From Escherichia coli (lineage in GTDB: Bacteria > Pseudomonadota > Gammaproteobacteria > Enterobacterales > Enterobacteriaceae), in NCBI RefSeq assembly GCF_002854065.1, contig NZ_CP024147.1: a stretch of DNA of 64,000 nucleotides. One strand, given 5' to 3'. The notes below the pieces were generated by a model, which made no database searches, was not told the DNA's origin, and was given only the letters and a program-made list of their open reading frames with translations. Position 1 is the stretch's first letter, and every line of letters starts with the position of its first letter. Shown piece after piece: positions 20,910-49,803 of the stretch. The translations under genes were made by a program, and so were the position numbers.

Positions 20910-22295
20910 TTACTTGCCTGTGACCGCTGCTGCTGTTCCTGGCACCATCAGCTCTGTAGCAACGATAACAATCACCAGCCCAACAAGCACCGGCACCGAG
21001 GTGCGTTTTACGACTTCAAATGGTGAGATTTTCGCCATCCCGGCAACCGCAACGACTACGCCAGAAACGGGCGAAAGGGTACGGCCGAGGTTTGACGCCT
21101 GCAGCATCGGGATAGTCAAATACGCCGGGTTAATGCCGGAAGAGTGCGCCAGTTTCGGGATCATCTCAACAAACGCATAAAACGGCGCATTGCCTGAACC
21201 GGTCGTGACTGCCGCCAGCATTGTCAGAATCACCAATACCAGCATCAGGATGATACTCGCCGAACCAAACGAGGTAGCGATAGAAATCAGACTTTGAATA
21301 AAGCCGATGGTGCTAAGCCCCTGAGCGAATACCCCAGCGGCAACCAGCAGCATCACCACGTTAGCAAACGCATCTGCCATCCCGCGATAAGCCACTTCCA
21401 GACCAGAGAAAACTTTCTGGGTATTAAAGCTGCGGAGGAACTCCAGAATGGAGGCAATCAGCATACAAATCACCAGAATAGTGATGATGTGTAATTGCGG
21501 ACCCCATTTACCGTCAAAAATCAGTACACCGATGATCGGCGTGAACGGCAAAATGGCATAAAACGCAGGAGCAGTGGTGGTGATTTCACTGACATCTAAC
21601 ATTTCATGAGAGATGTGCTCTTTTTTATCCAGATAACGTTGCCAGAAGAAGTGGGCGATCGCCATGCCGATAATTGCAGCAATTGAGATAGGCAGCGTCG
21701 TTTTGAAGGCGAAGTCAATCAGCGACATTTCGGAAGCTTGCGCCGCCAGCACCACATCCCCTGAAGTCGGTGCGAGAATAATCGCCGCCGGGGAGGCACA
21801 AATGGCAGCTGCTGCCCCACGACTGATACCAACGTTTACCATCACCGGAAACAGGGTTGCCATCAGCAAAACACCCAGACCGGTTGCGGAAGAGACGGCC
21901 AGTGACATCAGACAGGCAACAAAATAGGCGGCAATCATCAGCAGGTAGGGGGAGTTAATATACTGCAATGGTTTTGACGCCAGCTTGACCACCATATCAT
22001 TCGCGCCGATATGGGTCATGTAAGCGGCAAAGCCACACAGCATCATAATCATCATGCCGAGGTCGCCGCCGCGGCTCATTAGCAATATTTTAACGTATTC
22101 AACGATATCCGTGGCGCTGTAGCCTGTTGAAGCTTGGCTGGACGGTAACACTTTGTGCCCCATAATGGCACTGATAATCAGCAATAACAGGCCACCGACA
22201 AATAACACACCAGTGGCGGAATACCCTTTAATGATGTAGCGAGCTACACCCACAATAACCACAACCCCAATAAGGAGTTCAATGAATGTCAGCAT
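20910..22295 (-). CDS. dcuC: Anaerobic C4-dicarboxylate transporter
   Basis: 461-aa polytopic membrane ORF. Confidence 0.93.
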   Translation of the reverse strand: MLTFIELLIGVVVIVGVARYIIKGYSATGVLFVGGLLLLIISAIMGHKVLPSSQASTGYSATDIVEYVKILLMSRGGDLGMMIMMLCGFAAYMTHIGANDMVVKLASKPLQYINSPYLLMIAAYFVACLMSLAVSSATGLGVLLMATLFPVMVNVGISRGAAAAICASPAAIILAPTSGDVVLAAQASEMSLIDFAFKTTLPISIAAIIGMAIAHFFWQRYLDKKEHISHEMLDVSEITTTAPAFYAILPFTPIIGVLIFDGKWGPQLHIITILVICMLIASILEFLRSFNTQKVFSGLEVAYRGMADAFANVVMLLVAAGVFAQGLSTIGFIQSLISIATSFGSASIILMLVLVILTMLAAVTTGSGNAPFYAFVEMIPKLAHSSGINPAYLTIPMLQASNLGRTLSPVSGVVVAVAGMAKISPFEVVKRTSVPVLVGLVIVIVATELMVPGTAAAVTGK

Positions 22296-22384
22296 AATTT
22301 TTCCTGTCTCCAGGCCCCAAAGTAAATAATAAAAAATTCCTAAAGCTTAAGGAAAAAATATGCCCAATAAATTGGCGGTGGATG

Positions 22385-22398
22385 CTGATTAAAATCAA
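22385..22398. promoter_or_regulatory. Putative FNR box upstream of dcuC (cTGAT-TAAA-ATCAA)
   Basis: Near-consensus TTGAT-N4-ATCAA palindrome with one mismatch, centred about 96 bp upstream of the dcuC start. Confidence 0.4.
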
Positions 22399-22880
22399 GA
22401 AAAACTGCCATTAAGACATTGAAGTTGCTGTTTTTATACGTAGATAACAAAACGCATATTTAGCGGTTGGCAATTATCACATAATAATGTGTGTAAATTG
22501 ATGGAGGATTGATGCAAATTTGTTAATCGCAATGGTGTTAGCTGCGGTTGCGTGCTCAGAAAATAATCTACCATGAGCATGGGTTGACGATATATATTAT
22601 ATGCTTCGTTAAGATGATTGTTGTATTTCATTGAAAAATAAAGAAATATTTCCTTGATTGCATTTTGTCATCAAAAAAGACTTGGTTTTTTTTTGACTAT
22701 TCCCATCGAAGAAAACGACGCATCATCTTTAATCGATGCGCGGAAATATTTAACTTAAACAAGCGGAAATAAATAGAGCAGCTATTCAGATTATTCTTTA
22801 TGTTGGGGCTATTAAGGTTATGTTAATTGTAGCTTTGCTATGCTAGTAGTAGATTTTTGATAAATGTTTTATGGTCACAA

Positions 22881-23441
22881 ATGAACGTGAGTAAATATGT
22901 CGCTATCTTTTCCTTTGTTTTTATTCAGTTAATCAGCGTTGGTAAAGCTTTTGCTAACGCAGATGAGTGGATGACAACGTTTAGAGAAAATATTGCACAA
23001 ACCTGGCAACAGCCTGAACATTATGATTTATATATTCCTGCCATCACCTGGCATGCACGTTTCGCTTACGACAAAGAAAAAACCGATCGCTATAACGAGC
23101 GACCGTGGGGTGGCGGTTTTGGCCTGTCGCGTTGGGATGAAAAAGGAAACTGGCATGGCCTGTATGCCATGGCATTTAAGGACTCGTGGAACAAATGGGA
23201 ACCGATTGCCGGATACGGATGGGAAAGTACCTGGCGACCGCTGGCGGATGAAAATTTTCATTTAGGTCTGGGATTCACCGCTGGCGTAACGGCACGTGAT
23301 AACTGGAATTACATCCCTCTCCCGGTTCTACTGCCATTGGCCTCCGTGGGTTATGGTCCAGTGACTTTTCAGATGACCTATATTCCGGGTACCTACAACA
23401 ATGGCAATGTGTACTTTGCCTGGATGCGCTTTCAGTTTTGA
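22881..23441 (+). CDS. pagP: Lipid A palmitoyltransferase (outer-membrane beta-barrel)
   Basis: ORF 22857..23441; start set at [14 protein letters not shown] for 186 aa. Confidence 0.93.
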
Positions 23442-49720: not shown

Positions 49721-49803
49721 TGCATTTATATCTTGAAAGAAAAAGAGATAAACAGATTAAGACCACCCAGGTAACGCGTGGTGATCTTAATCAATGACGT
49801 GTG

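Follow-up and report, generated by a model that had tools for sequence, protein, structure and literature searches.

A conserved FNR box centred at -41.5 probably serves a class II, FNR-dependent promoter of dcuC in Escherichia coli

The dcuC-pagP locus

The stretch of DNA analysed here (the window, 64,000 nucleotides) is from E. coli and carries the gene order dpiB-dpiA, dcuC on the opposite strand, and pagP-cspE, as found in the RefSeq annotation of strains CUWW06 and MG1655. DcuC is a C4-dicarboxylate carrier for succinate and fumarate that acts in succinate efflux during glucose fermentation, and the protein (WP_000955063.1) is the same in CUWW06 and K-12. The start codon of pagP is an ATG at 22881 on the plus strand, which leaves an intergenic region of 585 bp (22296..22880) between the two genes. 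The preliminary description of this DNA gave its length as about 560 bp, a value that is replaced by the measured one.

Of 5426 complete E. coli genomes, 5381 contain the interval between dcuC and pagP. Over 22296..22880 the window matches strain CUWW06 at 100% identity and K-12 derivatives at ~95.6%, and the spacer has a G+C content of 32.5%, compared with 50.2% for the window. It is unusually variable in the species: identities range from 91 to 100%, and an identity of 99% or more with the window is reached by only two genomes of the 5381. Despite this variability, the DcuC proteins of the window strain, K-12 and O157:H7 are identical. The features of the dcuC promoter region are collected in Table 1; positions with a sign are relative to the transcription start of dcuC.

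Table 1. Features of the dcuC gene and its promoter region in the window
Feature	Coordinates	Strand	Remarks
dcuC coding sequence, regulated gene	20910..22295	-	461 aa; open reading frame list and RefSeq annotation
dcuC 5' untranslated leader	22296..22349	-	~55 nt counting the start base; length from the published start
Shine-Dalgarno sequence AGGA	22302..22305	-	6 nt before the ATG; inside GACAGG, conserved across genera as GACAGG(A/G)
dcuC transcription start (+1)	22350	-	transferred from K-12; uncertain by ~1 nt
Weak -10 hexamer CATATT	22357..22362	-	at -12..-7; 7 nt upstream of the published start
FNR binding site	22385..22398	-	TTGATTTTAATCAG on the dcuC strand; identical in K-12; ChIP-bound in Table S6 of Myers et al., 2013
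A/T elements upstream of the box	22400..22434	-	TTT at -52..-50, TTAAT at -64..-60, AAAA at -84..-81

A near-consensus FNR box upstream of dcuC

The plus-strand letters of the box are CTGATTAAAATCAA. Their reverse complement on the dcuC strand, TTGATTTTAATCAG, fits the FNR consensus TTGAT-N4-ATCAA at nine of the ten specified positions, as the preliminary description had read it, and the centre of the box (22391.5) lies upstream of the dcuC ATG, 96.5 bp from its A, in agreement with the distance of about 96 bp given there. The sole departure from the consensus, at 22385 (-35), is the last letter of the promoter-proximal half-site, G where the consensus has A (ATCAG).

Taken alone, such a match is weak evidence and says little beyond chance. 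Boxes with at most one mismatch are frequent: the window holds eight, against 2.87 expected, a count reached by 1 of 100 shuffles. One of these eight, GTGATCTTAATCAA near hscC (49781..49794), has a higher score than the dcuC box when rated with the published FNR matrix (PatSer 14.56 compared with 12.38), yet this site (682,677) is unbound in vivo and overlaps H-NS enrichment (Myers et al., 2013, Table S6; PMC3688515). Match quality alone is thus no predictor of FNR occupancy, and both observations speak for the possibility that the dcuC box is a chance near-consensus sequence with no regulatory role. The dcuC box rises above chance because of its occupancy by FNR in vivo in K-12, a mapped transcription start and its conservation in 80 of 80 loci, each of which is described below. 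It is also the only one of the eight one-mismatch boxes of the window to be found among the ChIP-bound sites of Table S6.

FNR occupancy and FNR-dependent expression at the K-12 site

The 230 bp nearest to the dcuC promoter are 98% identical between the window and K-12, the box itself is identical, and there are no indels from the box to the ATG. Relative to the K-12 MG1655 site (Myers et al., 2013, Tables 1 and S6), the window therefore has the same 14-mer at the same distance from the ATG, in the same flanking promoter apart from two substitutions, with no functional difference; the two E. coli strains share one and the same site. The two substitutions fall in the non-conserved spacer between the box and the -10 hexamer, which reads CATCCACCG in the window and CATTCATCG in K-12. 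They are rare, with an identity of at least 99% over 91 bp in 21 genomes.

In K-12, an FNR ChIP-seq summit at 655,298 (U00096.2) with one FNR motif was assigned to dcuC (Myers et al., 2013, PLoS Genet, Table 1; PMC3688515). The predicted site at this peak is listed as CTGATTAAAATCAA at 655281, between dcuC and pagP, with a PatSer score of 12.38 (ln p -10.96), which exceeds the genome-wide threshold of that study, and with no overlap with Fis, H-NS or IHF (Table S6). The summit lies ~11 bp from the centre of the box, and the peak was detected by three ChIP-seq callers as well as by ChIP-chip (Table S5). RNA-seq marks dcuC as FNR-activated (Table S8). The gene is placed in Category 1 ('directly activated by FNR'), and both its sigma-70 occupancy and its expression rise under anaerobiosis. 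The fold change of 0.0498 given for dcuC (Table S12) is a ~20-fold higher anaerobic expression, a direction judged from the values of sdh and acnB in the same table. FNR-dependent expression of dcuC is credited to Zientz et al. (1999) in PMC3688515 and PMC5293742.

The preliminary description had proposed that the FNR box gives anaerobic activation of dcuC. A K-12 ChIP peak on an identical 14-mer, the Category 1 assignment and FNR-dependent expression all support this proposal. A search of the accessible literature returned no report of point mutation, footprinting or in vitro transcription of the dcuC box, nor any experiment on AR1/AR3 dependence or on loss of activation when the box is mutated.

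Transcription start and promoter elements

The ChIP study gave dcuC the label 'TSS not in peak region', and hence no site class (Myers et al., 2013; PMC3688515). The site went unplaced there because transcription starts were taken from EcoCyc and from an aerobic data set. The operon table of a SMRT-Cappable-seq study lists b0621 with a start at 656023 on the reverse strand, mapped neither in an fnr mutant nor under defined anaerobiosis (Yan et al., 2018, Supplementary Data 2; PMC6131387). These coordinates are those of NC_000913.3, the only version that agrees with the entry for the neighbouring cspE (657,249, forward). On it, the K-12 box occupies 656,058..656,071, and its centre (656,064.5) is 41.5 bp upstream of 656,023, or at -40.5 if the table is 0-based. 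In EcoCyc the start of thrL is at 148. The start table has it at 147 (PMC6131387), and because of this question of coordinate convention the dcuC start is doubtful by ~1 nt. The available parts of the supplements of Kim (2012) and Ettwiller (2016) contain no dcuC start.

The preliminary description had made its reading depend on a start at a functional distance from the box; the published start puts the centre of the box at -41.5, the canonical activating position. FNR sites lie at -41.5 ±4 in 19 of 23 activated promoters with a known start (Myers et al., 2013, Table 1; PMC3688515). The box could nonetheless be a real FNR site that does not act from the class II position, with the FNR-dependent start elsewhere, in a class I arrangement or further upstream (as at dcuB, -132.5). 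The label in the ChIP study and the growth conditions of the Cappable-seq study favour such an arrangement. We consider it very unlikely, because the published start is exactly 41.5 bp from the centre of the box, because the spacing between the box and a conserved -10-like hexamer is the same in all 81 sequences, whose downstream lengths vary, and because the phylogenetic footprint described below had predicted a start at ~22350 before the start-site data turned up. We assume that the mapped start is the FNR-dependent start of a class II promoter.

Downstream of the box, the -10 hexamer is weak (Table 1). No -35 hexamer is present at -35..-30, where the window has GCATCC, which matches TTGACA at one of six positions. 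A scan of 22200..22950 for consensus sigma-70 promoters returned none, a result that is to be expected of an activator-dependent promoter with no -35 hexamer and is uninformative here. Upstream of the box, the columns of the A/T elements carry 0.8-1.4 bits in the box-anchored alignment, compared with ~0.1 in adjacent columns. These elements may be UP-like contact DNA for the C-terminal domain of the RNA polymerase alpha subunit, or they may bend the DNA.

A conserved GGCAC beside the -10 hexamer prompted us to consider a sigma-54 promoter (TGGCAC-N5-TTGC(A/T), with GG at -24 and GC at -12). We discarded this candidate for want of a conserved -12 element: GGCAC is not followed at 5 nt by a conserved TTGC, columns -6 to +1 carry 0.3-0.7 bits, and E. 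coli reads GGCATATTTTTTCC.

Conservation of the promoter across Enterobacteriaceae

For the footprint, a scan with the DcuC protein, limited to one genome per species, yielded 80 loci from Escherichia, Citrobacter, Salmonella, Enterobacter, Klebsiella, Raoultella, Lelliottia, Leclercia, Buttiauxella, Pluralibacter and other genera. A box of the form TTGAT-N4-(A/G)TCA(G/T) is kept upstream of dcuC in 80 of 80. At most one mismatch to the FNR consensus is found in 61 of the 80 loci, compared with 2.7% of shuffled upstream regions, and at most two in all 80, compared with 28.7%; the loci share ancestry, so that these counts are not independent events. Chance as an explanation of the dcuC box is effectively refuted by this conservation, together with the ChIP-seq and ChIP-chip occupancy, the FNR-dependent expression and the canonical distance to the start.

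When 81 sequences, all of which have the box, were aligned without gaps, with the box as anchor, ~2 bits were found at TTGAT and TCAG of the box and at T-17, G-14, G-13, C-12, A-11, A-9, T-8 and T-7, and T is conserved at both -17 and -16. The spacer at -31..-25 carries ~0 bits, and its saturated divergence shows the conserved blocks to be under constraint. The hexamer CAnATT is present at -12..-7 in 78 of the 81 sequences (CACATT in 62, CAGATT in 8 and CATATT, the Escherichia form, in 7). Its spacing from the box is constant in all 81, whereas the distance from the box to the ATG varies from 61.5 to 334.5 bp. The promoter-proximal G (ATCAG) is kept in 94% of the 81 sequences, which span many genera, although change has reached saturation in spacer columns close by. 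This G at -35 may be selected, for a tuned affinity or for its position at -35.

Among E. coli strains, K-12, O157:H7, SFAD3 and X14-3 also have both box and hexamer; X14-3 keeps them although an IS1 element lies directly upstream of the box, at about -57. IS5 insertions in the dcuC-pagP spacer have been described under kanamycin selection. In Citrobacter amalonaticus S646 (locus L048, ~866-1200), an ERIC-like repeat of ~235 bp lies in the dcuC leader just past the predicted start. The box had seemed absent from this locus; it is present, and the insertion pushes it to 334.5 bp from the ATG. One contig titled 'Chryseobacterium sp. 18061' (CACSKA010000002.1) contains an enterobacterial dcuC locus, with 90% protein identity and the same FNR box and -10 hexamer, and its assembly is probably mislabelled or contaminated.

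The alignment also bears on which protein, and which gene, the box serves. It might be used mainly by another member of the CRP/FNR family, such as CRP, as CRP and FNR sites have the core TGA-N6-TCA in common, the half-site nearer to the promoter reads CTGAT outward and lacks both the T typical of FNR and the G typical of CRP, and the distal half of the Salmonella arizonae locus is GTGAT. The distal half is nonetheless of the FNR type, TTGAT, in 80 of the 81 sequences, and FNR occupancy by ChIP and dependence on fnr have been published for the K-12 gene. Equally, the box might serve the divergent pagP and not dcuC; pagP (crcA) is itself ~3.4-fold higher anaerobically (0.29 in Table S12; PMC3688515). 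Against this stands the distance of 483 bp from the box to the pagP ATG, and we rejected a role for the box at pagP because box and -10 hexamer persist in many loci where the upstream neighbour of dcuC is not pagP. A principal use by CRP or at pagP is, on this evidence, highly improbable, still less credible than an FNR site acting at dcuC from outside the class II position.

The remainder of the dcuC-pagP spacer

The preliminary description had left the rest of the intergenic region unexplained. This does not hold for the ~95 bp next to pagP, where the promoter region is conserved. In an alignment of eight sequences, conservation across genera is confined to these ~95 bp and to ~150 bp beside dcuC. 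The ~300 bp in the middle are AT-rich; they can be aligned within E. coli and with its nearest relative (the Escherichia sp. MOD1 locus) but no further, are largely absent in Salmonella and Citrobacter, and look like spacer.

Within the region next to pagP, cross-genus conservation is strongest at 22810..22844 on the plus strand, upstream of the gene, where a direct repeat, TATTAAggttaTGTTAA (22810..22826), is followed by TATGCT (22839..22844). The repeat resembles a PhoP box, (T/G)GTTTA-N5-(T/G)GTTTA, and TATGCT a -10 element. The same stretch coincides with a published sigma-70 ChIP peak at 655,742 (U00096.2; ~22844 in the window), ~37 bp before the pagP ATG, where the signal is 37 aerobically and 366 anaerobically (Myers et al., 2013; PMC3688515). 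This peak is the only oxygen-responsive one reported in the spacer; it lies ~500 bp from the dcuC start, yet was used as the sigma-70 evidence for dcuC. Its position may be the midpoint of a region, or it may reflect a separate anaerobic effect on pagP.

Several further elements have been placed in or near the spacer. An RpoN gSELEX peak lies near its pagP end, ~480 bp from the GGCAC of dcuC; a predicted ArcA site maps to it; and YeiE binding has been described downstream of the dcuC promoter. Ssr31, an sRNA candidate of 295 nt with RT-PCR as its sole support, was predicted in the dcuC-pagP interval of Shigella flexneri, on the same strand as pagP. The reading of the dcuC box is unchanged by the ArcA, YeiE, Ssr31, IS5, sigma-70 and RpoN items.

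On the dcuC strand, a terminator-like hairpin, GCGCATCGATTAAAGATGATGCGT followed by CGTTTTCTTC, lies in the middle of the spacer (22718..22741), where it adjoins a long A/T run; in the eight-sequence alignment it is present only in E. coli and the nearest relative. An Rfam scan of the intergenic region found no known RNA, the only match being to a plant snoRNA (E = 0.54). An open reading frame of 65 aa (22434..22631, minus strand) almost certainly does not represent a gene: K-12 lacks its ATG, 6 of its 65 residues are changed at ~95% DNA identity, and the region carries indels in other Escherichia.

Discussion

We propose, with a probability of about 0.93, that dcuC has a class II, FNR-dependent sigma-70 promoter with the box as its FNR operator. 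In the absence of oxygen, dimeric [4Fe-4S]-FNR would bind TTGATTTTAATCAG, centred at -41.5, overlapping the position that a -35 hexamer would take and where none exists. Bound FNR would then recruit and activate RNA polymerase at the weak -10 hexamer CATATT, through class II activating contacts, which we infer. Transcription would begin at ~22350 on the minus strand and yield a leader of ~55 nt ahead of the dcuC ATG. We give little weight to any of the four alternatives considered above (an arrangement other than class II, a chance match, use by CRP and a role at pagP).

In its design, the dcuC promoter resembles the class II promoters of dmsA, narG, nirB, nrfA, yfiD and ydfZ, whose sites lie at -41.5: the box is at -41.5 (or -40.5), there is no usable -35 hexamer, the -10 hexamer is weak, and induction is anaerobic and FNR-dependent. 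Unlike these canonical promoters, dcuC has a conserved non-consensus G in its box (ATCAG, 94%), and its PatSer score is modest, at 12.38 compared with 17 for narK, nirB and yfiD. The dcuB-fumB and frdABCD systems share with dcuC both the regulator, FNR, and the context of fumarate respiration and succinate efflux; their FNR sites, unlike that of dcuC, are at -132.5 (dcuB) and -45.5 (frdA) (Myers et al., 2013, Table 1; PMC3688515). dcuB additionally needs DcuS-DcuR and is repressed by nitrate. dcuC, in the 1999 work of Zientz, is reportedly free of both the need for DcuS-DcuR and nitrate repression.

The conserved departures from a minimal class II design admit more than one account. The G at the end of the box, the block T-17/T-16/G-14/G-13 and the A/T elements might represent selected tuning, or a docking site for a second, uncharacterised factor or for the alpha C-terminal domain, an account we hold only tentatively and think unlikely. 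Alternatively, they are simply inherited.

The FNR site of dcuC was already published, and nothing in its finding is novel; its confirmation in another E. coli strain brings no new biology. What is gained is the combination of the FNR ChIP-seq data of 2013 with the SMRT-Cappable-seq data of 2018 and the 80-locus footprint, which points to a class II site at -41.5, a placement that the ChIP paper had left open. It is also shown that a call made from sequence alone proved accurate.

Control by the oxygen-sensing regulator FNR ties the expression of dcuC to oxygen, a link that dates from 1999 and whose site was mapped genome-wide in 2013. If the conserved departures are indeed selected tuning, a sub-optimal affinity for FNR could set the oxygen threshold for succinate efflux.
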